From Dehalococcoidia bacterium (GTDB lineage Bacteria; Chloroflexota; Dehalococcoidia; UBA2979), in assembly GCA_965262725.1 (NCBI GenBank), contig OZ253555.1:384001-448000 (forward strand): 64,000 nt of DNA. The letters are read 5' to 3'. Positions 11,477 through 62,780 of this stretch are shown here, in pieces. Under the pieces are notes generated by a model. It had not been told where the DNA came from and made no database searches. It saw nothing but the letters and a program-made list of their open reading frames with translations. A program made the translations under genes and the position numbers. Numbering within the stretch: the stretch's first letter is position 1; each line of letters begins with the position of its first letter.

Positions 11477-11559
11477 AGGCTACGCCCAGACGTTCACAGA
11501 AAGTTCCGGCTGCGTTCCATGAGAGTTCACAACGTTCCGGATTTCTTCCGGATTTGTTC
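11477..11559 (-). promoter_or_regulatory. Phased GAAC array with -10-like TAGCCT (leftward promoter)
   Basis: GTTC at 11492, 11503, 11514, 11525, 11534, (CTTC 11545), 11556; near-identical inverted copy at 62698-62765. Confidence 0.7.
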
Positions 11560-11917
11560 CTTTTCCGCCGTGCGGGGCCGATTGGCGCCGCCAGCCCCGT
11601 CCCGGAGGGCGCCGCGACTCCCGGGCTGCGGGAATGACCCGGAACGATGGGCACGGCGCCGGCCGCACGGCCGTGGACGCGGCTCGACCCCGGTCCAGGC
11701 TGGTCGCACGAGCGATCAGCCGCGTGCCGCCGGTCCGCTACCTCAGCAGCGCATGGATTGAATCTGGGCACGCGACCGTCGGAACCTCTCCCGGGGCCCC
11801 TGCCCGTGGCCCACGCCGTCCGGTCAGGGCCGTGCGGGCCCGCTCGGGCGCCCGCGCACGGGCCGGCCACGGGCCCGCGGCTTCGCCCGGGCAGGCGACT
11901 CCGCCTTCGGGTCGCAG

Positions 11918-11969
11918 GAACGCCCTGTGAACAAATCCGGAACAAATTAGGAGCGGATCTTTGTATTTT
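11918..11969 (+). promoter_or_regulatory. Phased GAAC array with -10-like TATTTT (rightward promoter)
   Basis: GAAC at 11918, 11929, 11940, GAGC at 11951, 9 nt, then TATTTT. Confidence 0.65.
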
Positions 11970-12585
11970 GTTTTCTTGAACGGGGTGTGCAGGTCGCGTT
12001 CTGGCTCGCTCACGGACGATCCGTGCATCCCCACAGCGAGCAGCACGTCCCGGCAGTCGGCTCTGTCCTCAGCGGTGGTGATCCCGCCTCAGCAGACGTG
12101 CGGCTTCTTGCGAACTCACGGGTGCTGGACGAGTTCACTGCTGGAGTCGGTACCGGTCGGTCGCATGGCGACTGCCGGTCACGCACGGGCGAGATGCCAG
12201 GAGAGGCGACGACCCTCGTCGTGCTGCCTGAGCGCATCCACGACGTCGTGGTACCGCTGGCCGAGCGGCGCCGCCGACCGAAGGCTCCGCAGGTGTGCAC
12301 GACGCCGGCCTGCACCCCCGCACGGGGACCCGTTTGCGCGGCGAAGGCCGTCCTCGTCGCCCCAGGCCGCCGGCGGCAGTGCCTGCCCGGCACGGCTCCA
12401 CCGAAGGCCCTGACCGCCGTGGGTGCGGGGAGATGCACAGAGGTGCCTCGCCGATTCTGGGACAATGGGGTCTGACGGCCTTCCGCCCCTGACGCCGCCG
12501 ACCGCCGGGAGCGGCGGGTCGCCGGCCACACCGGGGCGGGAGCGCCGCGGGACCGCATTGCTGGAGATGGGGAACGGAGGATCTG

Positions 12586-12843
12586 ATGCCCACATTCACG
12601 AAGGTGAACCCTGATGATGTCGCCGTCGGTCGCGGGCGCGCCGGTGCGGAGAGGCGGAAGCCCTACATCGAGGCGCTGAAAGCGGGCGACGCGGGGAGCG
12701 TGGAGCTTGAGCGCGGCGAGAAGCCGGCGACCGTGAAGCGGCTGCTCCAGGAAGCGGCACGCCAGTCGAACATCCGCATCCGCTGCTCGTGGACGGACGG
12801 CCAGCAGCGCATGCTGGTGTGGAAGAAAGTCGGCGCGCGCTAG
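12586..12843 (+). CDS. Small basic hypothetical protein, possibly nucleic-acid binding
   Basis: GGAGG RBS; 85 aa basic alpha/beta sequence. Confidence 0.7.
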   Translation: MPTFTKVNPDDVAVGRGRAGAERRKPYIEALKAGDAGSVELERGEKPATVKRLLQEAARQSNIRIRCSWTDGQQRMLVWKKVGAR

Positions 12844-13047
12844 GCGGCGCAGGGAGCGCCGGGAGGGCCCCGGCGGATCCGCCTCGCGGCCGGCACCCCG
12901 CGCCGACTGTGCAGCGCGGCGGCAACTCGCACGTAGCGCTTGCCGCGCGCGCCGCCGTGCGGGCCGCGCACCGAACGGATAGTGCTCCGCGTGCCGCCTG
13001 CGAAGCAGGTGGAGCGCTCGAGGGGACGAGCTCGGGAAGGCAGGAGC

Positions 13048-13251
13048 ATGACCGCTGCCTTCTACGTCAACGAAGACAGGCCGACCGGCTCGGCCACGAT
13101 CCACCAGGCGGGGGGCCCCTGCCTGGTCCCCCAGCGAAAGCGGGCGCGCGATGGGCAATGGCACGGACCGTTTCGACTCAAGGAGGGGGCCCTGAGAGTC
13201 GCCCGTGACGTCGGCCGCAACGTCTACGAATGCCAGCGCTGTAACCCCTGA
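13048..13251 (+). CDS. Small Cys/His (putative Zn-binding) protein, copy 1
   Basis: AGGAG RBS; H-x5-C and CQRC; near-identical copy at 32184. Confidence 0.8.
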   Translation: MTAAFYVNEDRPTGSATIHQAGGPCLVPQRKRARDGQWHGPFRLKEGALRVARDVGRNVYECQRCNP

Positions 13252-13455
13252 CGCCGGGCGGAGCGGCCGTCGCCGCCCCGAAGGACCGACCGCCCGCGCA
13301 GAGCTCCCTCGGACACGATCAGTCGGCCGGTCCCCGAGCGTCTGCGTGCGCCGCGCTGCGTCCGCGACCGGTCGTCGGTGTCCGCAAACGGGCAGTGCGG
13401 CGCGTGCGCGCCCGAGCGGCGCGCGGGCGGCGGCTTCTGACCCACGGAACCACCA

Positions 13456-14340
13456 TTAGATCGACTGAAAGAAGCTCGCCTCAACGGTCACTCTCTCGAC
13501 CGTCTCGGTTCGTACGCCGAGATCAAGCCTCTTGAGGTGATCGCACAACTCGTTGCCGTCGATCAAGTCGATGGCCGGAGCCCCATCGCGTACCGCTTCC
13601 TGCTCCGCGCTCGGGCTGAAACGGCCCGTTGTCAGGAAGAGGCCCTTGTCGGCGCGACCAACCATCGATCCCCGAAAGTCTCGAATCGCCCCTGAGCCAA
13701 CCGAACCCGCATAGCGCTTGCACTGGAAGACGATCTGGAACGAGATGAGGTTGACCCGCAGGACGCCAATGCCGTCAATCCCGCCGTCGCCCGAGCGTCC
13801 GGTGACCTCCACCTTGGTGAATCCGCTTTCCCTGAGAAGCCGCTGGCAGAGACGCTCGAAGGCGTCCGGGTGCATCTCCCTCGACGCGCCGAGCAATTCG
13901 TCTGTCCAGTCGGTGTCCGCGTCGTCTTCCGTGCTGCCGAGTGAGTCAGCCGCGGGGGCGTTCTTGGCCCCACGGGTAAAGGATCTTCGGTAGCTTCGAA
14001 TGTGCTCAAGAATCCTGTCCCGAACGTCGTCCTCCGCCGTGACGGCCTCCGCCGTGAGCTCTCGTCCGTACGCGGTTATCGACCACACGCCCCGGCTACT
14101 GTTCGTTGCCGCGTCCATGCGTTTGAGGAAGGTCCGTGCCCAGGCCGCCTGGTAGTAGAACTCCGTTTTCGGACCGTTGCCGTGCGCCACCTCGCGCACG
14201 GCATCCGGAAGCTCCAGGAGGGCTGCCAAGTCCTCGGAGATCTCCCGAGTGGAGGCTGACCCACCTCGCTGTTGGAGAACCCGGAGGATCGGCAGGCATA
14301 GCTCTTCACGGGTGGGGACGCGGTCGGCCAGGGAATCCAC
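13456..14340 (-). CDS. mrr: Mrr type IV restriction endonuclease
   Basis: Mrr_N (WARTFLK..SRGVW) plus Mrr_cat (FERLC..DGGIDG..QCKRY..LIDG). Confidence 0.93.
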   Translation of the reverse strand: MDSLADRVPTREELCLPILRVLQQRGGSASTREISEDLAALLELPDAVREVAHGNGPKTEFYYQAAWARTFLKRMDAATNSSRGVWSITAYGRELTAEAVTAEDDVRDRILEHIRSYRRSFTRGAKNAPAADSLGSTEDDADTDWTDELLGASREMHPDAFERLCQRLLRESGFTKVEVTGRSGDGGIDGIGVLRVNLISFQIVFQCKRYAGSVGSGAIRDFRGSMVGRADKGLFLTTGRFSPSAEQEAVRDGAPAIDLIDGNELCDHLKRLDLGVRTETVERVTVEASFFQSI

Positions 14341-14505
14341 CCGCGCATTATGCACACGCGGTGTGCAAGGTCGCCTTACCGCACCAGAGGCCTCGACCCC
14401 GAGACGGGTGTGCTCGCGACTCCCGCGTACGGGCACGGTATCCGTTGCCGAGATCGGCCAGCGCCTGATGGGCCAGACCGACGGCGAGCGAATGCGTGAC
14501 GCGCG

Positions 14506-17500
14506 CTATTCGTTCTCGCCGCTCGGCGAATCCGGGTCCGCCGCTGTCGCGAAGCGGTACACGCGACTCTTCGCCTGGCGTACGCCCGAGAGGGTCATCC
14601 CCCTGTCATCCGTCGGGCGCAGCTGCCCGAGGGGATCGACGATCACGCGTACGGTTGGCCGGGCATCGACACCCTCGATACCGGACACGACGACGAGGAA
14701 GAAGCCGGGTGTGGTGCGTGCCCGCTTCACCTCGGCCGCCGTCAGCGATACCTGATCCGGCTCGGCACCCGCGCTGACCTTCAGCTCATAGAAGTGGCCC
14801 AGCTGGTCGATCGCGTCGGCCCCAACGCCCCGTTGGGCGCGGAGATCCACGATCTCGTCGCCGTCGGTGTCGAGCAGCATCCGCAGGATCTCGAGCCCCA
14901 CGTTCTCCTGCTCGAGGGCCGAGTACCCGCGCAGGGTGCTCCGGTTGCGGGGCGCGCTCGATCCCGGGTTCGGCTCGGCAAGATCCACGTCGCGATGCGC
15001 CCGAGCACCGATGCCGCCTGCGGGAGCCGAGTCGGGGCGTGCCCCCTCCTCCGCTCCACCCGGCGAATCGAGGAGCCTCAGCCAACGCGGGTCCACCAGC
15101 ACGCGCGGCGCACCCATCTCCGATGCCGGATGATCGGCCTCGCGCCCATCGTCGGCGGCGCCCGAAGGCCGAGCGTCGCCCGCGGCCCGTCCGGCGGCGC
15201 CGCCAGCTGCGCGACGCCCGGCTCCCGTTCGCGCGTCAATCCCCGCCAGGCGCCTCTCGATCTCCGCCTCGTTCTGTGCCTGCTCGCGCTGGGCGCGTTC
15301 GTTGGCCAGTTCCACGCGATTCGCCTCGCGTCCATCCTCGGCCTGGTCCCAGGCGGCCCGCCACGCCTGCGCGAGCTGCCGCGGATCCCCTCCGAACAGC
15401 GCGGCGATCGCCCGCCCGCCCCCATCCACGCGTGGGAGCACCGAGGGATCGCGGACGAACACCGTGCGGAGGGCGGGCTCCACCTTCGCCGCGACGCGGG
15501 CGGTGTGCACCTCGCTCACGGCGCCCACGACCGCGGGGACGCTCAACTCGAGGCTGGGATGCACGCTCACCCCGAACTCGCCGAGGTTCTCCCACGGAAC
15601 CGTCACGCTCGCTGCCAGCTGCGGGTCGTTGCGGGCGAGATCCTCATGGAGAAGCCGAAGCGCCGCTCGGAACAGCTCCGTTGAGTCCTCATCCTCGTGG
15701 GCGAGCGTCGGTTCGATCACCGCGGAGTCGGCGGTGCGGAGCTCGGTCACGCGCAGCGGGCCGAGGAGCGGTCGGAACTGTTCGAGCTCGCCGCCCGGCT
15801 CCCAGAGCGGCAGGCCGCCACGAAGCCCCTCGGCGAGGACGCGGTCATTCGTCGCATACACCGGGCGCGCGCGCGCCCGATCGCGTACCCAGCCCAGGCT
15901 CGTCCACAGCGGTAGCCGCGCGAGGGTGGGCGCCTTCACAACGTTCCCCCGCGAGTGATGCGAAGCGAGCGCCCGGAGCGTCTCGAGCAGGATGGTCAGC
16001 TCGGTGCCATCCGGCGCGCGCCGGCGGCGGGCGATCGTGCGGATCACGGCCACGCAGTCGTCTGGTGAGGGCTCCCGGAGACCGAGTGCGCGCCAGAGCG
16101 GCTCGGTGCCCTCGACAGCCGGGGCGAACGCCCGGTGGTCGCCGAATATGGGTGGCCCCGCGAGAACGCTCCGCGGAGGAAGCCAGCCCGCTTTCGTGAG
16201 GACGAGGCCTCGGCCGCGCTCGAACGCCCTGCGCAACTCGTTCTCGGTGAGATCAGAGCGAGAGTTCCGCGTCGTGAGCGAACGGGACAGAGCCCGGTAG
16301 ACAACGGCGACATCCGCGATCGTGCCGCCGGACGGGGATGCGGCCCGCAACTGATCGAGCCGGCGGACGAGCGCGGAGCGGCCGGGGTCGGTGGTGACGC
16401 CGAGCGCGCCGAGCACGTCGGGTCGCGTGGAGCGAGGAAGGTCGCGGTGAAGATAGCCCGGCGCGTCGTCACCGTAGATGGCCTCGGTCCCCGGAGTTCT
16501 GACGCGCAGCTCGGCCGGCCGGCGCGCGATCCCGCTCTCGTCGTCGAGCCAGGCAACAGCCGAGGCTTGCCAGAGCCAGAACGCGCGGACCCGCCCCCTC
16601 ATCTGCCAGTTGTGGTACTCCGCCGCGGCGTCGACTTCGGCGATGTCGCCCAGTCGCCGGTCCCACGCTCGGCCCAGGGTCGCAAGCAGCGCGCCGGCGC
16701 GCTCGCGCCTCCGTCTCTTGCCGCGCTCGCGGGTGATGTCCCGGACCACTGCCAGGAGGTCGGGGCTGTCGTAATCGTCGAGGGTGTAGGTCGCCTCACG
16801 CTCCCGCAACGCCTGACGGCGGGAGGACACGCCGCCGGCAACCCCGGCGGGCAGGCCTTTGCGGCGGTCGACATAGCGCAGCTCGAGCTGCGGGTGCGCT
16901 CGTGCGCGGGGTGCCGTCTCGGCCCCGAGCAGCCGCAGGAACTGGAGTGCTCCGATCCCGCCCCGACCGGCGGGCGAACGGAGCACGCGCGCGTACCGTC
17001 CACCGAGCCACACGAGCCCGGGCGTTTCCCGGGCCGCCACCGCGAAGCTGTCCGGCTCCCGATCGACGGTTCGGGGCAGATACGCATCCGCGGGGCGAGC
17101 GCTGAGGGTCCTGCGCCGCTTCCGGTCGTAGGTGTATGCCTCGAGGGCCACGGCGCGACCGACGTCAGCCCCGAGCTCGTCGCGTTCCGTCGGGTTCATT
17201 GGCTCGAAGGCGTTCCGCAGTGCCTGCACCTGCTCGTCCGTGAGGGGCGCATCGAGCCTGCGTCCCGATCGACCGGCAGCGGCGAGACGGCGGACCACCG
17301 CGCGATCGTCGGAGCCGTCGAGGAGGGCTCCCGACTCGCGGAGCCACGCGAGGACTGCGGGGGCTCCGTCGCCGTCGCCGAGGTGGGCGGGGTGCAACAG
17401 CGTCACGACGCCGAGCTGCTCCGCCAGCGGGGTCGCGCTCGCCGCGAGGGCCTCCGGTGCGTCCTGGGGTGGAGGGACGAGGCGCCGGCGGTCCTGGGCG

Positions 17501-19101
17501 ATCACGAACGGGAGCGTGAGCAGGCGCGCGCCGAGGCCCTCGCCGAGAGCCGCCGCGGCGAGGGCGATCGTGGCATCCGGGGCCCGGGCGTCGTCGCCCA
17601 CGAGCTCGAGTGCTTGTTCGACGCTCACTGGCTCGGGAAGGTCTGCACCGGCTGCTCGCCAGTCCTCCAGCACGGCTCGCCAGCGGCCGGCCCGGTCCCT
17701 GACCGCGCTGGGGATCGCCGCCGGGAGGCCGGCCAGTTCGGCCGTCTCGGCCGCGGTCAGGATCCCCTCCAGCGCTCGCGCCTCGACCGCGAGCTCCGCC
17801 AGGCGGACGCGGCCGCGACCGGGCACGGGGAACGCGAGGTGGGAAGCGATCCACCGCCTCGCGCGATCGGTGATCGCCTTCTCCAGGGCGCGGACTACCG
17901 GCGATGTCGTTTCGTCCTCGTCGGAGCCCGCGATCGGCATGGCGTGCCACGCGACTCCGGGATCGCGCTGGAAGAGGTCGAGCGCCGCGTGCGACCAGAG
18001 CTCGGCGATCCGGGGCAGGAGCGAGAGGTTCCAGTCGCTGTGTGCGAAGTCGCGGCGGCTCGCGAGCGGGTCGAACTGCGCGTTCACGAACAGCGGCAAT
18101 CGCGTCGAGGCGACGGGGAGTCCCTCGTGGACCTGTCCGGTCTCGACGGGGCGGAGCGGTAGCGCCACGGAGACCGGGACCGTGGAGTCGGTGGCCTTCA
18201 TGGCCCGCATGACGCCGGCGGGCGCGGAGACCTCGGTGCTGTAGACGGCCCACGAGCGCCCGTCCGCCGACTCCACTCGCTGCCGGGACGCGGTTCGGGC
18301 TCCGGGAGACGGGGGCGGGCCCAGTTCGCCCTCGTCCCGACGGGAGAGCGCGAGTTCGTGAACCACGTCGCCTTCCGGCGCGAGCAGGGTGACTCGCGAG
18401 ACGCTGCGAAGGAAGAGCAGGGCGGCATCGTCCCAGCGTTGGAGCCACTGCTCGACATCCGCCAGGCTCACGACGCCCGGTTCCAGCGGCACCCGCAGGG
18501 TGGTCCAGCCCGCCCCGCCGAACCACGCCGGCAGAGCGGGCGGCTCGATCGGCGTGACGGGGGGCTTGCCGCCGAGGCGCACGTGGTACGGGTGGCAGTG
18601 GACCTCGAGCGTGCTCGAGAGCGATCGGAGGGTCATGAGCCCGATCCCGAAGCGACCGATCGCGTCGGCTTCGTCACGCTTCGTACTGAGCCACGGCGTC
18701 GCCAGGCCGAGCACATGGCGCAGGCGCACCGGCCGGCCGTTGTGGCCTACCAGCAAGTCGGTCGGCCTCAGGAGCAGCCGGACCTGCGAGGCCCCGACAT
18801 CGTCGGCGTTCTGGACGATCTCGGAGAGCCCCTGGAGCCGATCGCTCGACAGCAGGCTGCCGCTGCTGAGACCAGCATCCAGGACACGCTTGGCGACGCC
18901 CGAGAGACGCTCGAATGCCTCACCCAGCTCCCGGGTCGCCGCCCGGGCTTCGGAGACATCGCGCGGTTCGTAGGTGGGCTCCGCACCGTCCTCGGCGTCG
19001 AACAACCGCCTGGCGGCATCCACGGCGAGCCGGACTCGCTCACCTCCAGCGTCCTGGGCCTCAGTCATGTCCTGGGCCCGGATCCAGGAGCGCCAGGCCA
19101 C
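14506..19101 (-). CDS. Sacsin-like GHKL ATPase with C-terminal DUF3883/NO VEIN-type PD-(D/E)XK nuclease
   Basis: EIVQNADD..HNG..STK..IGRFGIG; C-terminal GVGAD..YELKV..LTAAE. Confidence 0.85.
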   Translation of the reverse strand: MAWRSWIRAQDMTEAQDAGGERVRLAVDAARRLFDAEDGAEPTYEPRDVSEARAATRELGEAFERLSGVAKRVLDAGLSSGSLLSSDRLQGLSEIVQNADDVGASQVRLLLRPTDLLVGHNGRPVRLRHVLGLATPWLSTKRDEADAIGRFGIGLMTLRSLSSTLEVHCHPYHVRLGGKPPVTPIEPPALPAWFGGAGWTTLRVPLEPGVVSLADVEQWLQRWDDAALLFLRSVSRVTLLAPEGDVVHELALSRRDEGELGPPPSPGARTASRQRVESADGRSWAVYSTEVSAPAGVMRAMKATDSTVPVSVALPLRPVETGQVHEGLPVASTRLPLFVNAQFDPLASRRDFAHSDWNLSLLPRIAELWSHAALDLFQRDPGVAWHAMPIAGSDEDETTSPVVRALEKAITDRARRWIASHLAFPVPGRGRVRLAELAVEARALEGILTAAETAELAGLPAAIPSAVRDRAGRWRAVLEDWRAAGADLPEPVSVEQALELVGDDARAPDATIALAAAALGEGLGARLLTLPFVIAQDRRRLVPPPQDAPEALAASATPLAEQLGVVTLLHPAHLGDGDGAPAVLAWLRESGALLDGSDDRAVVRRLAAAGRSGRRLDAPLTDEQVQALRNAFEPMNPTERDELGADVGRAVALEAYTYDRKRRRTLSARPADAYLPRTVDREPDSFAVAARETPGLVWLGGRYARVLRSPAGRGGIGALQFLRLLGAETAPRARAHPQLELRYVDRRKGLPAGVAGGVSSRRQALREREATYTLDDYDSPDLLAVVRDITRERGKRRRRERAGALLATLGRAWDRRLGDIAEVDAAAEYHNWQMRGRVRAFWLWQASAVAWLDDESGIARRPAELRVRTPGTEAIYGDDAPGYLHRDLPRSTRPDVLGALGVTTDPGRSALVRRLDQLRAASPSGGTIADVAVVYRALSRSLTTRNSRSDLTENELRRAFERGRGLVLTKAGWLPPRSVLAGPPIFGDHRAFAPAVEGTEPLWRALGLREPSPDDCVAVIRTIARRRRAPDGTELTILLETLRALASHHSRGNVVKAPTLARLPLWTSLGWVRDRARARPVYATNDRVLAEGLRGGLPLWEPGGELEQFRPLLGPLRVTELRTADSAVIEPTLAHEDEDSTELFRAALRLLHEDLARNDPQLAASVTVPWENLGEFGVSVHPSLELSVPAVVGAVSEVHTARVAAKVEPALRTVFVRDPSVLPRVDGGGRAIAALFGGDPRQLAQAWRAAWDQAEDGREANRVELANERAQREQAQNEAEIERRLAGIDARTGAGRRAAGGAAGRAAGDARPSGAADDGREADHPASEMGAPRVLVDPRWLRLLDSPGGAEEGARPDSAPAGGIGARAHRDVDLAEPNPGSSAPRNRSTLRGYSALEQENVGLEILRMLLDTDGDEIVDLRAQRGVGADAIDQLGHFYELKVSAGAEPDQVSLTAAEVKRARTTPGFFLVVVSGIEGVDARPTVRVIVDPLGQLRPTDDRGMTLSGVRQAKSRVYRFATAADPDSPSGENE

Positions 19102-19316
19102 CTGGTGATGGGGGCGTGAGGTGGAAGTCCTCTACGGCACAGCGCGAGCTGTCGATAGCGTTCCGTGGGCCGCGCGCGGGTCGCCGAGAGGCGGACCGTG
19201 AAGGGTCCGTAGCGCGGAGCGCGGGCGGGGCTGTTGCGAGAGGTCCCGGGCACCAGTGTCTGTGGCTCACCCAAGAGGAATCTCCGCGGCGCCGCGCACT
19301 GCACCAGGCACTCGCG

Positions 19317-19961
19317 CTACTCGTCGTCCCGCTCTCCGTGCTCAGTGCGCTCCCTCAGGTCGGCGAGCGATTCGCCGTTGAAGTACCAGAGGTGCGCGGC
19401 CGAGATCCAGTACGATCCCAGTCCGCCTCTACGCCGGATCTCGTTCGCGGCGGCGGTCAGCGATGTCTCTTGCCCCTCGAATTCGATCCGGCGGCGCGAG
19501 ACTACCGTGGCCGTGAACCCGGGCTCAGCTTCGGAGCCGGAGTCGTCATCGCTCCCGAAGTGCAGCACCGCTCCTGGCTCTAGCCCCACCATCTCGAAGT
19601 TGAACTTCTCTCGACGCTGCTTGGAGGCTTCCAGTGCTCGTCCAGCTTCCTCGTCTTCAACGACATCGGCCGCAGGCGTCACGTCGCGTCCCCCGGTCAA
19701 ACGCATGGCCGCAACGACGCGCTGCGCGTTGACCCGGAAAAACTCGCGGCTCCGGCGTACGCGCTGGTCACCGAATGCCTCATGCAGCAGGCGTTCGGCC
19801 CCGATGTGGTCCTCGACCTCCAGGGCGAGCGCGCACACGAAGGGCACCGGGACGCTCGTGTTGTCGAGTTGGCGCAGGCGCTGCTCGATGTCGGTCGTGC
19901 AACCGATCTTCACGACGTCGGGCATCTCCGGGTTTTCGAGACAGTAGACGATACCTGGCAT
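19317..19961 (-). CDS. GIY-YIG (T5orf172-type) protein with RAMA-like C-terminus
   Basis: GIVYCLEN..VKIGCT..QRLRQL..E..LH..REFF; C-terminus FEGQETSLTAAA..WYFNGESL..LR. Confidence 0.8.
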   Translation of the reverse strand: MPGIVYCLENPEMPDVVKIGCTTDIEQRLRQLDNTSVPVPFVCALALEVEDHIGAERLLHEAFGDQRVRRSREFFRVNAQRVVAAMRLTGGRDVTPAADVVEDEEAGRALEASKQRREKFNFEMVGLEPGAVLHFGSDDDSGSEAEPGFTATVVSRRRIEFEGQETSLTAAANEIRRRGGLGSYWISAAHLWYFNGESLADLRERTEHGERDDE

Positions 19962-20328
19962 GCGGCTCCGTTCGTGCCGGCCGCGAGCCCGTGCAGGCCA
20001 CGAGGCCGTCCCTGAAGATCAGAGGGCCATCTTCGTCACCGCGAGTGAACGTGCTCACCAGCCGCTTCCCCTCAGGGAGGGTCGGTGCGCACGAGAGTAT
20101 CCGAACCGTAAGGCGGCCCGCCAGAGAGCCAACGCCTGAGCCTTGGTCCACGTCCCGCTAGATCCAAAGCGAGTGCGCCCACGTGCAGACGCATTCCGCC
20201 GCTCAGGGCCCTGGTCGGTGCCGTCGAGGTATAGCCAGAAGTTGTGGATGAGCCAGGAGAGAGAGGCGGCGTACCCTCCCTGAGTCAACAGGAGTGGCCG
20301 GGAAGCCGGCCGGGGAGGAGTACGCCGG

Positions 20329-21352
20329 ATGTTGAGGATAGTCCATGAGGGAGGCGAGCGGGAAGCGGGGCCGGGGACGCAGGTCGGACTGGACGAGCTC
20401 TGCCGTATGGCCGCCCAGGAGATGCTCGGGGTGGCGCTGGAGGCCGAACGGCAGGCCTACCTCGAGCGTCACGCGGGCGCGGTCGATGGAGAGGGCCGCC
20501 GCGTGGTCGTCGGCAACGGCTACGCCCGCGCGAGAGAGATCACGACCGCCGCGGGACGGGTCGCCGTACAGGCGCCGCGCGTCGACGACCGCCGTCCCGG
20601 CGAGCGCTACATCTCGGCGCTTCTGCCGCCCTACATGCGGCGCTCGCCCAAGGTGACCGAGGTGTTGCCGCTGCTCTACCTGCGCGGGCTCTCGACGGGC
20701 GACTTCCTGCCCGCCCTGTCGGCGTTCTTCGGCTCGGGGGCGGGGCTCTCCGCCTCGACCGTGGGGCGGCTCACGGAGGCGTGGCAGGCCGAGCACGAGC
20801 GCTGGCAGCGACGCAGCCTGGCCGAAGTCGACTACGTCTACCTCTGGGCGGACGGCGTCCACTTCACCGTGCGTCTCGAGGAGGACCGGCTCTGCTGCCT
20901 GGTGCTGGTCGGGGTGCGCCCGGACGGCCGCAAGGAGCTGGTGGCCGTGCAGGACGGCTACCGTGAGGACACCCAGTCCTGGCTCGACCTGCTGCGGGAC
21001 CTGCGCGAGCGGGGCATGCGCGACCCCGAGCTGGCCGTCGGCGACGGGGCGCTCGGGTTCTGGGCGGCGCTGCGGGAGGTCTTCCCCCGGACCCGCGAGC
21101 AGCGCTGCTGGGTGCACAAGACCGCGAACGTCCTGGCGTCGCTGCCCGAGCGCGTCCAGGGGGAAGCAACGCGGGCGCTCCACGCCGTCTCCGGAGCCGC
21201 GACGCGCGCCGGGGCGCTGGATGCGGCGCGCACCTTCGCCGGGCAGTTCGCGCAGTGGCCGAAGGCGACAGCGAAGGTCGCCGACGACCTCGAACGGCTG
21301 CTCGCGTTCCACGACTTCCCGTCCGAGCACCACGCGCACCTGCGCACAACGA
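20329..21352 (+). pseudogene. IS256 transposase, 5' part (interrupted by antisense group II intron)
   Basis: YLWADG..AVGDGALGFW..QRCWVHK..HLRTT; joins 29540 to restore TTNPIESTF (425 aa). Confidence 0.92.
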
Positions 21353-21519
21353 GTAGGGTGAGGAGCTGGCGCGGTACGCGCTGTAGGCCGGTGGCGCTCT
21401 TGTTCCGAGCAGGTTTCCCCGCGGTGCCCAATCCCACGGCCATGGCATATCGCCCGTTTCCAGCTCCTCCCCGTCAAACCGGACAGGCGGTTCTCCCGCA
21501 TCCGGCTTACCGACGCCCT

Positions 21520-22313: not shown

Positions 22314-22450
22314 GTAGGGTCAGGTGGGAATGATGCTCTGAATTGGCCCCACCTGGAGCCGTTTTGATCCTTTGAATTGGCCCCACCCCCGACCCATCCA
22401 GGACCTACGCTCGGGTGACTGCATGACTCCCGGAGCGAGGGAAGAGGAGT

Positions 22451-24085: not shown

Positions 24086-24101
24086 CCACAGGAGGCACCC
24101 G

Positions 24102-26128: not shown

Positions 26129-26224
26129 TGTCGATCGCCAGGGTCATTGATCCACGCGTCGCCACGGTCATTAGACCACCCGGGACGCCGGTAGGCGGCT
26201 TGATATCAGTGAGCGTCTAGCGCG

Positions 26225-43274: not shown

Positions 43275-43284
43275 CCCGATCGCA

Positions 43285-46574: not shown

Positions 46575-46575
46575 G

Positions 46576-49797: not shown

Positions 49798-49831
49798 GAC
49801 GGCTGGTCATGGACCGGAAGGGGGTGTGGTG

Positions 49832-50014: not shown

Positions 50015-50024
50015 GCCGCGCCGC

Positions 50025-52881: not shown

Positions 52882-55800
52882 GTGGCCGGAGCGGTGAGGC
52901 GGCGGCGGAGCGGGGCGGGCCCCGGGCGGCGCGGGGACTCGGTCGGGACGCTCGGCCTGCTCGCCCTGCTCCTCGGGGGCGCGGCGCTGGGGTACGTGCT
53001 GCGGGAGCTCGCCGGCGGACCGCGGGCGCCGGACGGCGCGCACATCCGCGAGGTGCTCTCCGGCACGGAGCTCGCCGACTCCGACCTGGCCTCGGCCTCG
53101 GCTGCCCTCGCCTGGCTCGTGCTGGCGTACCTCGCGCTCAGCGTCGGGCTGAGGCTCGCGGCCCTGCTCGCGGGCCGGCTCAGCGGCGGGGCGCGGTGGG
53201 CGCGCACGGGCCTGCGCCTCAGCAACCTGGTCACGATCCCGGCCGTGCGCCGCCTCGTGGACGGGAGCGTCGGGGGCACGCTGCTCGCCGCGAGCTGGCT
53301 GCCGCTGCCCGCGCAGGTCGAGGGCGCGGGCCACGCGTATGCCGCCGCGGCGGCGGCGGCGGCGCCGCCGCCGCTCGTGGCGTGGGTGGACGCCCCGCCG
53401 CCTGCCGCCGAGGCCGCGCCCGAGGCGCCGCCGCCTCCGTGCGTCCTCTACACGGTCGCGCCCGGCGACGACCTGTGGGAGATCGCGCGGCGCTGCTACG
53501 GGGACGGCAGCCGCTTCGTCGAGATCTTCGAGGCGAGCCGCGGCCTGCAGGTGGCAGGCGGCGAACGCTTCAGCGACCCGCGGGTCATCCGCCCCGGCTG
53601 GGTGCTGCGCGTGCCGATGCCCGCGCCGAGCGTCGACGCCGAAGGCGACGTCACGACCTACCGCGTCCGACGCGGCGACCACCTCTGGGGGATCGCCGAG
53701 CGCTTCCTCGGGGACGGCTTCCGCTGGGTCGAGATCTGGGAGCGCAACAGCGGACGCGAGGTGGAAGCGGGCTCCCGGCTCACCGACCCGAACCAGATCT
53801 ACCCGGGATGGCTGCTGGAGCTGCCGCTCCGGGACGGCGCGGCGATCCTGCGGGCAGAGGCTCAGGGCCCGGCAGCACCCCCCGCGCCCCTCCCGGTGGA
53901 GAGTGCGGTCCAGCCGGACTTGGCTGACTACCTGGATGGTGCTGCTGTCGGGGCCGGCACCGCAGCATCCGAGGGCGCCGCCGAGGACGCCGATGCAGAC
54001 GCCGCGCGCGGCGGTGGCTGGGACTGGGAATGGCCGCGGCTGCCGCGAACGGTCACCTGGAGCGCCGCGGGCTTCGTGGCGATCGGCGGCACGGCCATCT
54101 TCGTGCAGCGGCTGCACCGCGCAGGCTCGCTGCGGCTCCGCTTTGGCGCGGGCCGCGGCGGGGACGGTCCGGGCGACGCCGGCCGCGTGGCGCTCGCCAC
54201 CGGGGCGCTCGCGACGGCGCTCGCGGACCTGGGCTTCGCCGGCTCGATGCCGCTGCTCGTGATCGAAGGGGGCGCGGGGCTTCAGTTCACGGTGGCGTGC
54301 CCGCCCGGCGATGCCGGCGCCCTGCTCGCGGCGCGCCACGACCTCGAGCGGCGCCTGGGCTGCGATGTCGAGGCGGCGCCGGAGGGATCCGCGCGCGTCG
54401 CGCTGACGCTGCCCGGGTCCGGGCGGCCTCCGGGCGCGCGCGCGGGGGCTCCGGACGCGCCTCCGGCGCTCGTCGTGCCGGTCGGCGCGAACGATGCGGG
54501 CGTCGTCTACCTCAACCTCGCGGCCGCGGGCAGCGTGACCGTGGCCGGCACCGCCGGGGAGCGGCGGGCGCTGCTGCGCTCGTGGGTCGCGACGCTCCAG
54601 ACGACCCGCACCCCGAACGAGCTCTCATTCCGCGTGGACGCAGACGCCGCCCGGCTGCTCGATGCGGATGCGGGTCTCCTCTACTTCGGCGCAGCCGGGG
54701 CCGGCGGCGCCGCGGACCTGGCGGAGGAGCTCGATGAGATCATCCGGAGCCGGAGCCCGGGTGACGGGGTGAGCCGGCCGCTCGTCGCCGTCTTCGACCT
54801 GGCCGGGGGCGGCGGCGACGTGCCCGCCGGGGCGGTGCGCTACGGGCCGGCGGCCGGGGTCTTCGTGATCCGCTGCCTGCCGCCGGGCGAACCCGCGGAC
54901 GGCCTCGAAGGCCCCGGAGCGCTGGTCGCCTTCGGCGCCGCGGGAGACGGAGCGGACGGGGACGCGGACCCCGTCCCGCCCGGCGCGATCGCGCTGAGGA
55001 CCGGCCGGGACGAGCCGCTGCTGCTCGAGCCGGTGCACGTGCGGCGGGATACGTCGGCCAGGTGGAGCGAGAGCGCGGACCCGGCGGAGCCGGCAGAGGT
55101 GCTCGGCCGGATGGCCGGAGATCTGCCGCCTCCCGGGGAGGCGGACGCGCGCACCTCGGCCGACGGACGACCGCGGAGCGGCGACGATCGCGGGGGCGAT
55201 GCCGCCGGTGTGGGCGCCGCCCTCGCGCACCCGGTCGTGCCCCCGGTCGTGCCCCACGACCCGCCCGGGTTCGCGGCACGCGGCGGCGGCGGGCGAGACG
55301 CCGTGACCTCTGCGCCCGTCCGACCGGGCGGCGAGCCGGATCTGGATCTGGATCTGCCCGAGCCCGTGCCCGCGGCCCCGCAGGATGCCGGGTGCGAGGA
55401 CGGTCGAGTGCGGTCGGCGGCCCCCCCGGAGCAGCCCGGCGGGGAGGTCGCGGCGCAGCCCGGCGCGGCGCCCGCGGGCGCGACCCCCTCCAGCGGATCC
55501 CCGCCGGAACACGGCCCGGCGACGACGCCGGAGCCGCAGCCGGCGGCGGCGGGCGCGGGCGCGACCCCCTCCAGCGGATCCCCGCCGGAACACGGCCCGG
55601 CGACGACGCCGGAGCCGCAGCCCGGCGCGGCGGCCGCGGGCGCGACCCCCTCCAGCGGATCCCCGCCGGAACACGGCCCGGCGACGACGCCGGAGCCGCA
55701 GCCGGCGGCGGCGGGCGCGGGCGCGACCCCCTCCAGCGGATCCCCGCCGGAACACGGCCCGGCGACGCCGCCGGAGCCGCAGCCCGGCGCGGCGGCCGCG

Positions 55801-56832
55801 GGCGCGATCCCCTCCGGCGGCTTCCCGCAGGCACACGGCCCGGCGACGCCGCCGGAGCCGCAGCCCGGCGCGGCGGCCGCGGGCGCGATCCCCTCCGGCG
55901 GCTCCCCGCAGGCACACGGCCCGGCGACGCCGCCGGAGCCGCAGCCCGGCGCGGCGGGCGCGGGCGGTGCGGGCCGGTCCGCGCCGGCGATCCGCCAGTC
56001 GGCGCTGCTCACTCACACCGACCTCTCCCCGGCGGCGGAGGATGGCCCGCCCGCCGCGCAGGCGGTCTTCACGGTGCGGTGCCTCGGCCCCTTCGAGCTG
56101 CGGTTCGGAACCACCCCCGTCGCGGGCTGGCCCGTCACGAAGTCCCGCGAGCTGCTCGCGTTCCTCGCCACGCAGGGCGGAAGGCCCGTGCCGCGCGAGT
56201 CCGTCGCCGAGGCGCTGTGGCCGGACTACCCCTGGGACGCGAGCCTCCGGCACACCATCGCGAATGCCGTGAGCAGCCTGCGGGGGGTCGTGCGGTCCGC
56301 GGCGGGCAGCGACGAGCTGCAGCCGGTCGTCACCGCCCGCCAGCGATACGAGCTCCAGACCGCCCTCTTCCGCATCGACCTCGACGAGTTCGAATCGGCG
56401 CTCAGGCGCGCGGCCGCGCTCCCCGATGTGGACGCGCTCGCGGAGTACGAGCGCGCCGCGGCGCTCTGCCGGGGAGACTTCCTTGAGGGGGAACCGTTCC
56501 CGTGGCTCGACGCCTACCGGGCCGACTACCGCCGGCGAGTGTCCGACGGGGCGAGCCGCGGCGCGGCGATCGCCGAACGGCTCGGGGAGCGGGAGCGGGC
56601 GTCGCTCCTCTACCGGGTGGTCCTGGCGCAGGAGCCGACCGACGAGGCGGCCGCGCGGGGACTGATGCGCCATCTCGCGGCGGCCCGGGACGCCAACGGG
56701 GTCCGCAAGGTCTTCAAGGTGCTGTCCGAGGCGTTGAAACGGGAGCTGGACGACCCGCTGGCGGCGCCCGGGCAGGAGACGCGGGAGCTGCTCGCCGCGC
56801 TCCTCGCCCGGGCGCCGGGAGCGGTGGTGTGA
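52882..56832 (+). CDS. TM - 2xLysM - TM - degenerate FtsK-like - tandem repeat - SARP (wHTH-BTAD) protein
   Basis: YTVAPGDDLWEIA and YRVRRGDHLWGIA..PNQIYPG; VRCLGPFEL..RELLAFL..RGDFLEG..EPTDE. Confidence 0.88.
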   Translation: MAGAVRRRRSGAGPGRRGDSVGTLGLLALLLGGAALGYVLRELAGGPRAPDGAHIREVLSGTELADSDLASASAALAWLVLAYLALSVGLRLAALLAGRLSGGARWARTGLRLSNLVTIPAVRRLVDGSVGGTLLAASWLPLPAQVEGAGHAYAAAAAAAAPPPLVAWVDAPPPAAEAAPEAPPPPCVLYTVAPGDDLWEIARRCYGDGSRFVEIFEASRGLQVAGGERFSDPRVIRPGWVLRVPMPAPSVDAEGDVTTYRVRRGDHLWGIAERFLGDGFRWVEIWERNSGREVEAGSRLTDPNQIYPGWLLELPLRDGAAILRAEAQGPAAPPAPLPVESAVQPDLADYLDGAAVGAGTAASEGAAEDADADAARGGGWDWEWPRLPRTVTWSAAGFVAIGGTAIFVQRLHRAGSLRLRFGAGRGGDGPGDAGRVALATGALATALADLGFAGSMPLLVIEGGAGLQFTVACPPGDAGALLAARHDLERRLGCDVEAAPEGSARVALTLPGSGRPPGARAGAPDAPPALVVPVGANDAGVVYLNLAAAGSVTVAGTAGERRALLRSWVATLQTTRTPNELSFRVDADAARLLDADAGLLYFGAAGAGGAADLAEELDEIIRSRSPGDGVSRPLVAVFDLAGGGGDVPAGAVRYGPAAGVFVIRCLPPGEPADGLEGPGALVAFGAAGDGADGDADPVPPGAIALRTGRDEPLLLEPVHVRRDTSARWSESADPAEPAEVLGRMAGDLPPPGEADARTSADGRPRSGDDRGGDAAGVGAALAHPVVPPVVPHDPPGFAARGGGGRDAVTSAPVRPGGEPDLDLDLPEPVPAAPQDAGCEDGRVRSAAPPEQPGGEVAAQPGAAPAGATPSSGSPPEHGPATTPEPQPAAAGAGATPSSGSPPEHGPATTPEPQPGAAAAGATPSSGSPPEHGPATTPEPQPAAAGAGATPSSGSPPEHGPATPPEPQPGAAAAGAIPSGGFPQAHGPATPPEPQPGAAAAGAIPSGGSPQAHGPATPPEPQPGAAGAGGAGRSAPAIRQSALLTHTDLSPAAEDGPPAAQAVFTVRCLGPFELRFGTTPVAGWPVTKSRELLAFLATQGGRPVPRESVAEALWPDYPWDASLRHTIANAVSSLRGVVRSAAGSDELQPVVTARQRYELQTALFRIDLDEFESALRRAAALPDVDALAEYERAAALCRGDFLEGEPFPWLDAYRADYRRRVSDGASRGAAIAERLGERERASLLYRVVLAQEPTDEAAARGLMRHLAAARDANGVRKVFKVLSEALKRELDDPLAAPGQETRELLAALLARAPGAVV
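55477..55962 (+). repeat. Intragenic tandem repeat, 6 x 81 bp (27 aa)
   Basis: Units start at 55477, 55558, 55639, 55720, 55801, 55882. Confidence 0.92.
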
Positions 56833-57386
56833 CGGGGCGTATCGCCGGCGTGCGGCGCGCGTGGCTGGTGAGGGCCCGGGAGCCGCGGGCAGCGTACCCG
56901 GCGCTCGCGGGAGCGGCTCTCGTGGTCGGGGCGGTCCTCGCGCTGCGCGGGCGGGAGCCGGCGGAGATCGTCCTGGGTTCGGGCTTCGGTGCCTGCTTCC
57001 TGGCGCTGGCCTGGTCGGACCTCCGGCGCCGCGTCCTCCCGAACCGGCTCGTCTACCCGGCGCTGGTCCTGGCGATCGCCGTCTCCGGCGCCTGGCCCGA
57101 CCGCGGGGTGGTCGAGGCGCTCACCGGCGGGCTCGGCGCGCTCGTCGTCGCGATCGCCATCCGCGGACTGAGCGGGGGCGGCCTCGGCGGCGGGGACGTG
57201 AAGATGGTTGCGCTTGTTGGGGCGGTCGTGGGCTACCCGGGCGTGCTGTCGGCCGGATTCTGGGCCGCGCTCGCGGGAGGCGTGACGGCCGCGGTGCTGC
57301 TGGTCACGCGGCGAGCCGGACGCGGTGACCGCGTGCCCTACGGGCCGTTCATCGCGCTCGGCGCGGTTGCGGCGCTGCTGGGCTGA
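56829..57386 (+). CDS. Prepilin peptidase (A24, CpaA/TadV-like)
   Basis: SDLRRRVLPN, GLGGGDVK, VPYGPF. Confidence 0.9.
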   Translation: MTGRIAGVRRAWLVRAREPRAAYPALAGAALVVGAVLALRGREPAEIVLGSGFGACFLALAWSDLRRRVLPNRLVYPALVLAIAVSGAWPDRGVVEALTGGLGALVVAIAIRGLSGGGLGGGDVKMVALVGAVVGYPGVLSAGFWAALAGGVTAAVLLVTRRAGRGDRVPYGPFIALGAVAALLG

Positions 57387-58061: not shown

Positions 58062-58063
58062 GC

Positions 58064-59312: not shown

Positions 59313-59357
59313 GCGCGCGGGACGCGATGGGCGAGCTGACGTAGGGAAAGACGATGC

Positions 59358-60853
59358 TCAACCGAACGCGCGAACCGGGGGTCCGCCCGCGGGAGCGGGC
59401 CAGGCGTGCCCGAGCGGGCCCTCCCGTTCGATGAGGGCGCGGTGCGAGACCCGCAGGGGCAGCTCGACGCGGGCGCGGGCGATCTCCTTGCGCGCGACGC
59501 GCAGGAAGTGGTCCGCCGCGATCTCATCCTCGAAGACCACGAGCACGGCCGGGCGCGCGCCGTGGTCGTCGGTGGGGCGGTGGGAGGCGTAGTAGCGCAG
59601 GTAGGGGGCGAGGCGGGCGGCCATCGTGGAGGGCCTGACGGCGCGGCGCTCCCACTCGAGGAAGAACGCCCACGGCTTCCCCTCGCGGCGCAGGACGCCG
59701 AAGGCGTCGGGGTGGACGGAGTGCAGGACGCCGCCGTGGCGGAAGTAGCGTGACGCGCGGTGCGGCGGGTCGAGCTGCGCCACCTCCCAGCCCTCGTTTC
59801 GCGCCTGCCGGGTCAGCGCCGCCACGAAGCCGTGCACGGCGGCGCTGTGGTCGATGGTGCGCAGGAGCTGGCGGCTGCGCCTGCCGGCGACGTTGCGCCA
59901 GCTGAGCGGCGCCTCCGGGTCGAGCGGCCGGGCGCTCCAGCGCCGCAGGGCGAGGTTGGCGGCGGAGCGGTCGCGGCGCGCAAGCAACGCCAGCCCGCGG
60001 TCCTGCAGGACGAGCCGGCCCGCGACGCGAGCGACGAGCGACGCCTCCTGGAGCGGATGCAGGAGCTGCGAGACCTGCCGGGCGGAGACGCCCAGCAGCG
60101 CCCGCAGGTCGCAAGCGGCTCCTCCTCCGGCCACGCGCCCCGCCGCGCGACGTGCGCGAGGACTTCCCGGAGCGAGAGGAGCGGCGAGCCGGAGGCCGTG
60201 CGCCAGATGCGGGCGCTGGTCCCGGACGTGGCCGCATCGCCCTCCAGCGCGAGGAAGGCGGGTACGGACGCCTGGGCCATCAGCCGCGCCGTGTGGCGCA
60301 GCCGCACCGCGTCGGGGACGAGCAGCAGGCAGGCGCCCGGGCGCGGCCCCTCGCGCAGCCGCCAGAGGCGCTTGGCGAAGGAGGTGCGGTCGGCGGTCTG
60401 CCCCTCCCTGACCACGAACAGCCTCCGCCCGCCGGGGAGCGCGAGCGCGGCGTCCATCGGCATCGCCCGGTACCAGCGGAAGCGCAGCGGCCAGGCGGCG
60501 TCGGTGATCGCCGCGGCGAGCCGGTAGATGGAGGCCACGCCTTCGAGGCGCTCCAGCAGGAGCCGCCGCCAGTGCGCCGTGAGCGGCCGCGAGCGCAGCA
60601 GCTCGCCCAGGCCGGCGCCCTCCTCGGCGGCGAGGCGGCGCAGCCCGGCCGTCGTGAGCTGGTAGCGCTGCGTGGACGCGAGCAGCTCCGATGCGTGGGC
60701 GTGGGGGAGGGGGGCGACGAGCCCCGCAGCCTCCAGCGCCGCGCAGGCCGCGTAGACCGCCCCCCGCGACCAGCCGGAGAGGGCGGCCGCCTCCAGCCGG
60801 TCGAGGAAGGGCATCTCCCCGAGCAGCCGCAGCAGGTCGCGCTCGGCCGTCAC
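59358..60853 (-). pseudogene. Replication-relaxation-family (wHTH plus PD-(D/E)XK) relaxase-like gene, frameshift near 60110
   Basis: DHSAAV..VHPDAFG..FFLEWER..YLRYY; lies downstream of the coupling protein. Confidence 0.75.
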
Positions 60854-62428
60854 GCGGCGTCATCCCCGGAGGAAGCGCCGGGCGGCCGGGTGCGCTTGCT
60901 GCGCGGTCCCTTCCCGCGAGAGCCGTCCCCGGACGCGCCGTCGCGCGACTGGTCCCGCTGCTCCGGTTCGGATTCCTTCCCGCCGTCCTCTTCCGCCATC
61001 CCTTCGAGCCACAGATCGACGCGCCTGCGGCCCTCGGCGCGCTGGGCCGCGATCTCCTCCTCGGTGAGCAGGTAGGCGGACGCCTCCTCGCGGATGCGCG
61101 CGGCCGTCTCCGGGTTCCCGTCGTCCGGCTTGCGCACCTCCATCGAGAAGGCGGGCGCGCGCTCCGTGCCCACCGTCGCGCGCACGTAGGCGTGGTGCAC
61201 GGGCAGGGAGACGACGTCCTCCTCGGAGACGCGCTCGCGGTCGAGCTCCCAGACGAGCTGGCGCGCGTCCGAGCCCGCCACCTGGAAGACGGCGAGGCAG
61301 CCGACGTTGGCGAGCAGCGTGCTGCGCAGCGTGCGGGAGAGGTCGTCGAGCTTGTCGAGGCTCTGCGTGGCGAGCACGAAGCTCGCGCCGTACTTGCCCC
61401 AGCTCCGAGAGCATCGACTCGTAGTCGACGCCCGGCATCGACTGCATCTCGTCGACGACCACGAGCGCGCCGCGCCGTTGCGCCTGGGGCAGCTCGCCCT
61501 GCTCGCGGATGACGGCGTCCGTGAGGTTGAGGATCGAGGCCCCGACGAGCGCGGCGACGTCCTTGCCGGCCGCGCCCTGCGCGGTGGAGACGAGCAGCAC
61601 GCCGCCATCGAGGATCGTGCGCCGCAGGTCGATCGTGGAGCGGGGCTGACCGAGGATGGCGCGCGCCCGCTTCGAGGAGGCGTAGTAGGAGAGCCGCGTC
61701 TGCACGGGCGCGAGCGCGTCGGCGCGGTACTCGCGGCGCCAGCCCCGGAAGTCGCGCTCCCACCAGTCCAGCAGGAACTCGTCGCTCACGCGCTTCAGCA
61801 CGAGGGTGCGGAAGCGGTCGTCGGAGAGCAGGCGCAGCCCGTCGAGGATCGTGTACTGCTCCTCGGCGGCGGTGGCGGGGTGGGCGTTGTGCTCGTGCAG
61901 GGTCTTCACGACCTGCTCGAGGATCGACTGCATGCGCGGTCCCCACTGCTCCCAGAGCCCCTTCGCCACGCGCACGACCGAGTCGGCGGTGCGGTCGCGG
62001 TCGGCGAAGACGCGCGTGTCGAGCAGGTTGATGCCGGGGTAGCCGCTCTCGCCCGCGAGGTCGAGCAGGCGTACCTGCCCCGCCAGGGACTCGGGGACCT
62101 GCTGGAGGATGTCGGCGACGAGGTCGGCGTGGGGGTCGACGACGACGATCGCGTCGCCATCGCGGCCCGCCGCCTTCTCGCGCAGCCTGTGCGCGACGAG
62201 GTGCTGCATGAGCGTCGACTTGCCCATGCGCGTGCGCGCGACGTAGAGGTGGTGGCGGCGCAGCAGGTCGTCGGGGAAGCGGATCTCCCGCGGCGCGCCC
62301 GCCGTCGTCTGGCCGACGAGCGCCCCGCCGCTTACGTCCCTCGCCTGGGGGACGAGCACCCGCGCCCCGGAGCGCGCGACGAGCGGCGTCTCGTCCTTCG
62401 CCCCCGGCGGGTGCCAGAGCGCCACGGC
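60850..62428 (-). pseudogene. VirD4/TraD-like coupling protein, 5'-truncated, frameshift at the C-run 61397-61400
   Basis: ARTRMGKST, VVDPHAD, VVDEMQ, ELG/KYG..LATQ, LLANVG. Confidence 0.85.
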
Positions 62429-62686
62429 CTAGCGCACGCCGAGCACGCGCAGGCCCACCGCCTACGGGGACGAGGGCGACGACCTGATGCTGGCGCTCGC
62501 CGGGAAGATCGTCGCCGGCGGGGAGGACGCCGCCTCGGTCGAGTCGGTCTTCGCCCGGGCCCCGGGCCGGCAGCGGTCTCTGTTCTCCTGGGCGGAGTTC
62601 ATGTGGGCATGTGGGCGTCGCCCCATGTGTCCGCAGCATGCGGAAACGCCGCCCGGACCCGCGTTGAGCCGATTCTGGCGTGTTCG

Positions 62687-62780
62687 GAACGAATCCGGAA
62701 CAAATCCGGAACAAATCCGGAACGTTTTGAACTCTCATGGAACGTAGCCGGAACTTTCTGTGAACGCCTGATCGCACCCT
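62687..62780 (+). promoter_or_regulatory. Phased GAAC array with -10-like CACCCT upstream of the TrbL-like gene
   Basis: GAAC at 62687, 62698, 62709, 62720, 62729, 62740, 62751, 62762. Confidence 0.7.

Follow-up and report, generated by a model that had tools for sequence, protein, structure and literature searches.

A stretch of 64,000 nt from a Dehalococcoidia bacterium (assembly GCA_965262725.1, contig OZ253555.1, positions 384,001 to 448,000 of the forward strand; hereafter the window) contains the greater part of E1, one of the copies of a multi-copy element with a Tad pilus operon and a type IV secretion system (T4SS). Phased arrays of a four-letter word stand ahead of its establishment and transfer operons, and across relatives the promoter architecture is fixed while the word changes in step at both promoters. 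We favour, with moderate confidence, the reading that a SARP-type activator encoded by the element uses these arrays as its operators, most likely the C-terminal winged helix-turn-helix (wHTH) and BTAD region of a LysM/pseudo-FtsK membrane protein, and that the arrays serve a whole family of integrative conjugative elements with Tad pilus and T4SS. Feature coordinates are window positions unless marked as genome or contig positions.

The first-pass annotation had described three arrays of GAAC-N7 repeats, at 11492-11559 (minus strand), 11918-11954 (plus) and 62687-62765 (plus), and exact boxes were found in all three. Array A, which heads the establishment operon, comprises six exact boxes (minus strand; 11559, 11537, 11528, 11517, 11506 and 11495) and a degenerate GAAG at 11548, with an 11-bp period and one 9-bp break. 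Array B consists of exact boxes at 11918, 11929 and 11940 followed by a degenerate GAGC at 11951, and array C of eight exact boxes at 62687-62762, arranged as four, a 9-bp break and four. A and C do form the near-identical inverted pair that had been noticed: they lie 51,136 nt apart, agree at 80 of 90 nt and share one 9-bp phase break. A hexamer 9 nt past the last box was likewise found in each case, namely TAGCCT (11482-11477) after A, TATTTT (11964-11969) after B, if the degenerate GAGC is taken as its last box, and CACCCT (62775-62780) after C. The first and third are the predicted -10 elements of the establishment promoter (minus strand; predicted start near 11470) and of the transfer operon (plus strand; predicted start near 62787). 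No sigma70 consensus promoter was found in 10800-13400. In SARP-dependent promoters the repeats are 11 or 22 bp apart, with about 8 bp between the 3′ repeat and a weak -10, for example CACTGT (excerpts of PMC10936776). A and C have this geometry, with direct repeats 11 bp apart and the hexamer 9 nt past the 4-nt core, that is, 8 past the next base. Arrays of the same element, here at 11471-11560 and 62697-62786, are alike in their spacers as well as their boxes, which suggests gene conversion or inversion between the inverted copies. The orientation of the module differs among relatives, and in two of them (G001 and G002) the establishment and trbL promoters stand back to back.

Exact runs of at least three GAAC boxes occur 23 times in the 3.67-Mb genome (70.6% GC), against 0.30 expected from the frequency of the core. 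An element-type tail, like that of site A, B or C, follows all 23 (22 clear, one weak, at genome position 3808). Confinement of the sites to the element, which the first-pass annotation had proposed as a check, holds for these runs, all of which fall in copies of one Tad+T4SS integrative element; the count covers exact boxes only. Runs of at least two boxes number 84 genome-wide, with 88 pairs expected. Elements with GAAC and with GACC boxes occur together in one genome.

We assembled 28 related elements, 26 of them with sequence upstream of trbL, the first gene of the transfer operon. Phased boxes precede trbL in 26 of 26 (read by eye; some degenerate), and the core words among the elements are GAAC, GACC, GAGC/GGAC, GATT, GAGT and GGCG. 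While the word varies, the hexamer stays constant: in an unconstrained alignment it lies 9 nt past the last box and has A at its second and T at its sixth position (A2/T6) in 16 of 16 trbL promoters, mostly as CACGCT. Other anchor scripts imposed A2/T6; the unconstrained alignment and the by-eye readings are the unbiased sources. Establishment promoters show an array with the element-specific word and TAGCCT, TAGCGT, TAGGCT or TACCGT in 20 of 27 scored regions, A2/T6 being imposed here by the anchor search. In all eight contig-linked elements compared, one per lineage, the establishment array aligns best to the trbL array of its own element (two further linked elements, with no establishment anchor, are excluded from this pairing). 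In other families, an array, 9 nt and a hexamer were read by eye at 10 of 10 trbL loci, and four of eight distant establishment loci, also read by eye, keep all three; a strict automated search for periodicity in ten distant regions gave nothing at the threshold used, so that the arrays there are by-eye readings. In one distant element (G315), where two divergent halves make up the transfer operon, each half has its own array, 9 nt and hexamer. The distant-type trbL loci of nine genomes have no array (their upstream position is estimated), and the middle domain of the LysM protein gave no match in three listed genomes of these nine.

The proposed array binder is a 1316-aa protein encoded at 52882-56832 (plus strand). 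Its predicted transmembrane helices lie at residues 21-39, 79-97 and 390-408, and it comprises two LysM domains, an FtsK/EccC-fold domain (residues ~430-735), a repeat linker, and an OmpR-type wHTH with BTAD (residues ~1061-1316). The C-terminal domain was modelled with a predicted local distance difference test score of 94, and the six best fold matches of this model are EmbR and AfsR (E 2e-10 to 2e-9). BTAD was recognized in 18 of 18 aligned members and Trans_reg_C in 9 of 18 at E≤0.01; the window protein scores 24.7 bits for Trans_reg_C, under the 26.2 cut-off, and matches EmbR with E 3e-8. On the strength of the structural model, the C-terminus has the OmpR-type wHTH plus BTAD combination by which the SARP family is recognized. 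Within it W53 and R74 are invariant and N68 is near-invariant; these map to W74, R94 and T88 of AfsR through the EmbR alignment and inference only. The base-reading Arg92 of AfsR is not conserved in the SARP domains of LysM proteins. The best fold matches of the middle domain are the FtsK motor, TcpA and EccC (E 2.5e-10). Its Walker A motif, GxxxxGK[ST], is absent from 16 of 16 aligned members (by eye), and some distant members of the family retain a Pfam FtsK match. A profile search gave 46 representatives at E≤1e-30; among 30 matches scanned, LysM was present in 25 and BTAD in 21. Matches to the middle domain occur in 13 of 401 genomes of the class, and one Dehalococcoidia contig encodes a SARP domain 63% identical to that of the window; a named member of the family also belongs to this class. 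The proteins that matched the SARP domain on plasmids were BTAD regulators of a generic kind, and neither of the two regions inspected had a tad context. The linker ahead of the SARP domain is encoded by an 81-bp tandem repeat (55373-56101; a 27-aa Pro/Ala/Gly unit in ~7 copies) and is longer than in most relatives.

Four SARP proteins had been annotated in the window, and Pfam indeed finds four BTAD genes, at 30224, 32712, 43484 and 52882. The accompanying suggestion, that one of them co-controls the establishment, mating-pair and possibly pilus genes, is supported by cross-element comparison for the first two groups; it is not supported for the pilus genes, no array being visible ahead of their first gene, cpaB, in the elements inspected. 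A recombinant element (G003_a) is the most telling case. In the cpaF, trbL, standalone SARP and relaxase trees it groups with the E1 lineage, in the LysM-SARP tree with the GACC elements (99/99), and it has GACC at both of its promoters, ~90 kb apart. Approximately unbiased (AU) tests reject the alternative groupings (p 2e-6 to 5e-4). In a quartet screen of 45 segments, 30 of them with both contrasts, the wHTH segment was the only one to follow the word in both, and the break lies inside the LysM-SARP gene, after the LysM part. Comparative evidence of this kind makes the C-terminal SARP domain of the 1316-aa protein the most likely of the predicted binders.

Several points weigh against this assignment. 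The groups for the AU tests were chosen after the trees had been seen. Of the two quartet contrasts, the second amounts to a small difference (-7 points over 105 aa) and involves G067, whose establishment contig is unlinked and whose genome is 78% complete; no relaxase was found in it. In Mantel tests of protein distance against box distance on the full set, virB4 (rho 0.56), virD4 (0.43) and the relaxase (0.38-0.41) do as well as or better than the LysM-SARP segments (0.28-0.40), and nothing is significant once near-duplicates are collapsed (n = 10). Trees and Mantel tests leave out the pairings across unlinked contigs (G064, G080_b, G018, G020, G081 and G121), which gave mismatches. We found no code relating helix residues to the word: GAAC occurs with three different helices (in the E1 lineage, in G112 and in family f16), and in element E6 a SARP from the GAAC-containing group accompanies GACC/GAGC boxes. 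In compact elements the end of the SARP gene is a mere 2-3 kb from the trbL array, and linkage could explain part of the word-tracking signal, though not at the establishment array. On the promoter side, the anchor script found nothing in 7 of the 27 establishment regions of the family, and among the eight distant establishment loci three have no visible array and one is interrupted at the hexamer.

Other binders were considered. A soluble SARP-like protein, either the standalone one (43484-44263) or those encoded in the cargo (30224 and 32712), could bind the arrays and activate both operons; it would require no release from the membrane, and the standalone protein has BTAD with a wHTH-like N-terminus and is kept beside the tad operon throughout family f1. 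We nevertheless think it improbable. One recognition-helix stretch of the standalone SARP is common to the GAAC copies E3/E5 and the GACC element G003_a, while E1 has a different recognition helix and the same array as E3/E5, and a GAAC clade is rejected in the standalone SARP tree (p 6e-5). The protein had no match at E≤1e-5 in four of five distant genomes, three of which (G227, G315 and G366) keep arrays; the search also missed the LysM-SARP domains of these genomes and therefore excludes close orthologs only. The genes at 30224 and 32712 are patchy among relatives. Another possibility is that the arrays are sites for a relaxase or initiator (MOBC oriT direct repeats, or iterons) and their promoter geometry is incidental. 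TraX of pAD1, whose N-terminus is a wHTH, recognizes five direct repeats that lie 70-120 bp from nic (excerpts of PMC12857230), the relaxase of the element is a Replic_Relax protein with an N-terminal wHTH, site B has the appearance of an origin, and in the full set there is a weak correlation between relaxase and box distances. Yet the relaxases of G003_a and E8 nest in the GAAC lineage (98-100 support) with the first helix almost unchanged, and their arrays are GACC; moreover, an array precedes each operon 9 nt from a conserved hexamer, including the third array where the operon is split (G315). Relaxase binding is thus disfavoured by the comparison, and we give this explanation little weight.

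A repressor encoded by the element could occupy the same sites and allow zygotic induction, as with Reg576 of p576, which represses establishment-gene promoters through repeated cooperative operators (excerpts of PMC6294495); long arrays over the -35 region could well block polymerase. Reg576, however, is a ribbon-helix-helix repressor of promoters active by themselves, whereas a consensus -35 was not found here (10800-13400); in addition, the fixed spacing is that of SARP activation and the transfer operon has an array too, so that repression appears unlikely. Nor do we expect the binder to be a small protein of the element, such as orf100, orf85 or the 378-aa helix-turn-helix protein encoded after the relaxase. 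The last has a weak C-terminal helix-turn-helix, and orf100 departs from the backbone in one quartet contrast (-17) but tracks it in the other (+39); among the elements with arrays that we examined, most lack the genes for the 378-aa protein and orf85. A host factor is very improbable indeed. The alphaproteobacterial LexA box is GAACN7GAAC (excerpts of PMC3091678), and LexA acting on an SOS box of this type was therefore considered and rejected, because the boxes upstream of the host genes are palindromic, unlike the arrays: AGAAC-N4-GTTCT at recA and a near-palindrome at lexA. The only exact palindrome in the window (9718) is at chance level. Against any host factor, exact arrays are limited to element copies, and GAAC and GACC elements share one genome.

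Array B differs from A and C. Site B (11918-11975, plus strand) has three exact boxes and a degenerate one, and it closes with CGGAT and an AT-rich stretch. A counterpart with element-specific boxes, CGGAT and an AT-rich stretch was present in 15 of 15 homologous regions printed, family f16 having a different tail. An A2/T6 hexamer at 9 nt was seen in only two copies, both of its own lineage, among these regions (two of the 15 being mis-anchored). Because its hexamer is not conserved, the earlier view of B as a promoter like A and C is not supported. Site B may instead be a transfer or replication origin bound by the same protein as the arrays.

The GAAC-NNN-CTGT-GAAC core that had been singled out at 44391-44405 does exist as a box pair (44391/44402), at chance level and with no -10-like hexamer at 9 nt. 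Given the genome-wide number of runs of at least two boxes, a lone pair carries no weight, and in the two closest tad-carrying copies it is reduced to one box. It is enclosed by an inverted pair (44332-44375 / 44483-44526) between the SARP gene and cpaB, which faces the divergent starts of these genes; similar pairs occur in other copies, and this one is a candidate operator of the standalone SARP. The standalone SARP-like gene itself (43484-44263, minus strand), a probable tad regulator, is transcribed away from the tad operon, and its variants do not follow the array word. No array is visible upstream of cpaB in 15 elements of the family and six distant ones, so the proposed extension of control to the pilus genes is not supported. 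In two of the six distant elements a gene that we take to be XRE-like, from the type of its sequence, lies upstream of cpaB together with a canonical promoter, and for this reason the pilus operon appears to be controlled separately.

In the mechanism that we propose, SARP domains would line up next to each other on boxes spaced by one turn of the helix. The two proximal boxes would stand in for a -35 element, so that RNA polymerase is brought to a pair of promoters that are weak by themselves. One promoter would then drive the establishment genes, the other the genes for mating pair, coupling protein and relaxase, joined in most copies by xis/int. The tad operon, controlled separately, would supply both the pilus and the LysM receptor, making a two-tier switch in which a presumed surface signal at LysM alters the clustering of the tethered SARP domains, the arrays become occupied and both operons are activated. 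Since activator allele and array word change together, co-resident element lineages would be insulated from one another; each would probably respond to no activator but its own, a membrane-anchored protein that senses the cell wall.

A more specific scenario is possible, and we offer it tentatively. The Tad pilus would draw in a neighbouring cell, whose wall would be sensed by the external LysM pair; the dead FtsK-like domain would cluster, and several tethered SARP domains could then engage the arrays of 7-8 boxes. Transfer, excision and establishment genes would be fired, and perhaps an origin at site B licensed. Activator and arrays would be swapped as specificity alleles, kept matched through concerted evolution of the inverted arrays, and regulatory insulation groups would form among co-resident elements. 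If this is true, the same logic may extend to many actinobacterial plasmids with LysM-related genes in their tad loci. Our tentativeness applies to the scenario as a whole, from contact sensing through insulation groups to the actinobacterial plasmids.

The closest parallel at the promoter level is that of SARP-dependent promoters such as those of AfsR with its afs box, where 11-bp direct repeats likewise lie over the -35 region and a short gap of constant length leads to a weak -10 (CACTGT, as against CACGCT/CACCCT in the element); those promoters have 2-3 boxes and serve antibiotic clusters (excerpts of PMC10936776). The element arrays head conjugation genes, reach 7-8 boxes and have a phase break. 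The element SARP domain shares the OmpR-type wHTH + BTAD fold with AfsR and EmbR; unlike in those systems it is C-terminal on a LysM/pseudo-FtsK membrane protein, and its word varies by lineage. SetCD of SXT/R391 and AcaCD of IncA/C are alike in being one element-encoded activator of class II type that acts on promoters with no good -35, covers transfer and excision genes and uses element-specific motifs; they differ as FlhCD-like soluble heteromers under repressors, of unrelated fold and motif and with no membrane receptor (excerpts of PMC4542580). Pfam FlhC/FlhD gave no match among the proteins scanned, but such profiles miss SetCD/AcaCD (excerpts of PMC4542580). The likeness is one of analogous function, not of family membership. 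ToxR/CadC-type regulators of the OmpR family are membrane-tethered one-component wHTH sensors, as is proposed here; in them the wHTH is N-terminal, and both BTAD and an FtsK-like domain are lacking, while the element protein has the reversed domain order. Reg576/p576 resembles the present system in its repeated operators upstream of ardC-containing establishment genes, and differs as a ribbon-helix-helix repressor acting in zygotic induction, the mating-pair operon not being among the targets described (excerpts of PMC6294495). PAGK_2369, in the Tad locus of the Cutibacterium acnes plasmid pIMPLE-HL096PA1, has LysM and BTAD and lies near the end of the tad locus, as here; it is listed as a pilus assembly protein, with no regulatory role or target stated in that listing, and the likeness is one of listed domains only (PMC3666418). 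For LysM-BTAD genes of tad loci we found no function in open-access main texts, where they appear as one table row (PMC3666418, seen in excerpt). A description of SARP-controlled conjugation was not found in open-access full text either, subscription journals and supplements being outside the scope of the search.

The present analysis proposes DNA targets for the membrane-anchored LysM-SARP protein family of tad operons and a way in which conjugation could be switched on in this class. To our knowledge the protein family is unstudied, almost no mobile elements of the class have been studied, and few systems are known in which the donor senses the recipient; the receptor and operator proposed here can be put to direct test. 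The natural GAAC/GACC/GATT/GAGC allele pairs are a possible source of orthogonal activator-promoter pairs.

The establishment operon runs leftward from array A (5641-10964, minus strand) and encodes est207, orf328, orf100, a CHC2/Toprim primase, a Rad52-like annealase, orf70, ArdC and orf105 (Pfam); these genes are kept in relatives. Between array and operon lies a conserved leader (11040-11476, minus strand) with short hairpins and a purine-rich stretch. Its part at 11239-11476 is kept across two families, with some compensatory changes in the hairpins (5 of 16 pairs), and 3′ of the hairpins come a ribosome-site-like AGGAGG and then a terminator-like hairpin (11071-11052), ahead of the operon. 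The leader is possibly an attenuator, a small RNA or a single-strand priming signal; Rfam gave no credible match for it and one chance-level match in 10900-12700. Cargo genes separate this part from the Tad/Flp pilus operon (44569-52863, plus strand; cpaB, cpaE-like, cpaF, tadB, tadC, flp, two tadE, tadG-like and two further genes by Pfam), which ends with an A24 prepilin peptidase gene (56829-57386, plus strand; Pfam); no close cpaE homolog was found. After array C, trbL (62826-64000, plus strand) opens the transfer operon, which continues past the end of the window with pilin, prgI, virB4, primase, virD4 and Replic_Relax relaxase genes. Four other copies carry xis/int after the relaxase, and the limits of one copy are marked by tRNA-Gly and a 45-bp repeat. 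With T4SS, coupling protein, relaxase, integrase and att repeats all present, the family is, by gene content, one of integrative conjugative elements. The window copy has just an 88% tRNA-Gly remnant, at its right end, and may be decayed. TrbL matches occur in 29 of 99 genomes of the bacterial family.

Traces of the system were also seen elsewhere. An orphan GAAC array with a trbL remnant (G000:C1 662625-664774) stands upstream of an xis-like gene and a tyrosine integrase and may put the excision of another element under the same activator. In a genome of another genus (G008), a near-identical GAAC establishment promoter and leader (L088:7600-7880) are cut by an insertion-sequence-like stretch; neither trbL nor an establishment gene was found in that genome, and we read the remnant as a trace of recent transfer. 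On two plasmids, operons that run leftward next to tad loci are preceded by repeats with an 11-bp phase, each a single case: in pXCEL01 (L178:9031-9060 and 10900-11010) no matching hexamer follows, and in the Ca. Chlorohelix plasmid (L179 ~5020-5060) TATATT follows after 9 nt.

Directly upstream of array C, a second, frameshifted VirD4-like and Replic_Relax module is inserted (59358-62425, minus strand); its intact relatives (genome 2.049-2.053 Mb) adjoin a serine recombinase, and it is possibly a satellite element. In the interval 20226-29840 insertion sequences are nested with fragments of group II introns. Rfam gave just two matches for the window, both to such fragments (25604-25740 and 29336-29473), and the tRNA-Ser called in this interval by ARAGORN (21878-21959) sits in a multi-copy repeat and is probably false. 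Defence-like cargo (969-3736 and 13456-19961) includes a TIR-domain gene, a HicAB-like pair, an Mrr nuclease, a T5orf172 protein and a 1531-aa protein with a weak sacsin-domain match. An 85-aa protein of no known family (12586-12843) has ten genome copies, often separate from the element core.

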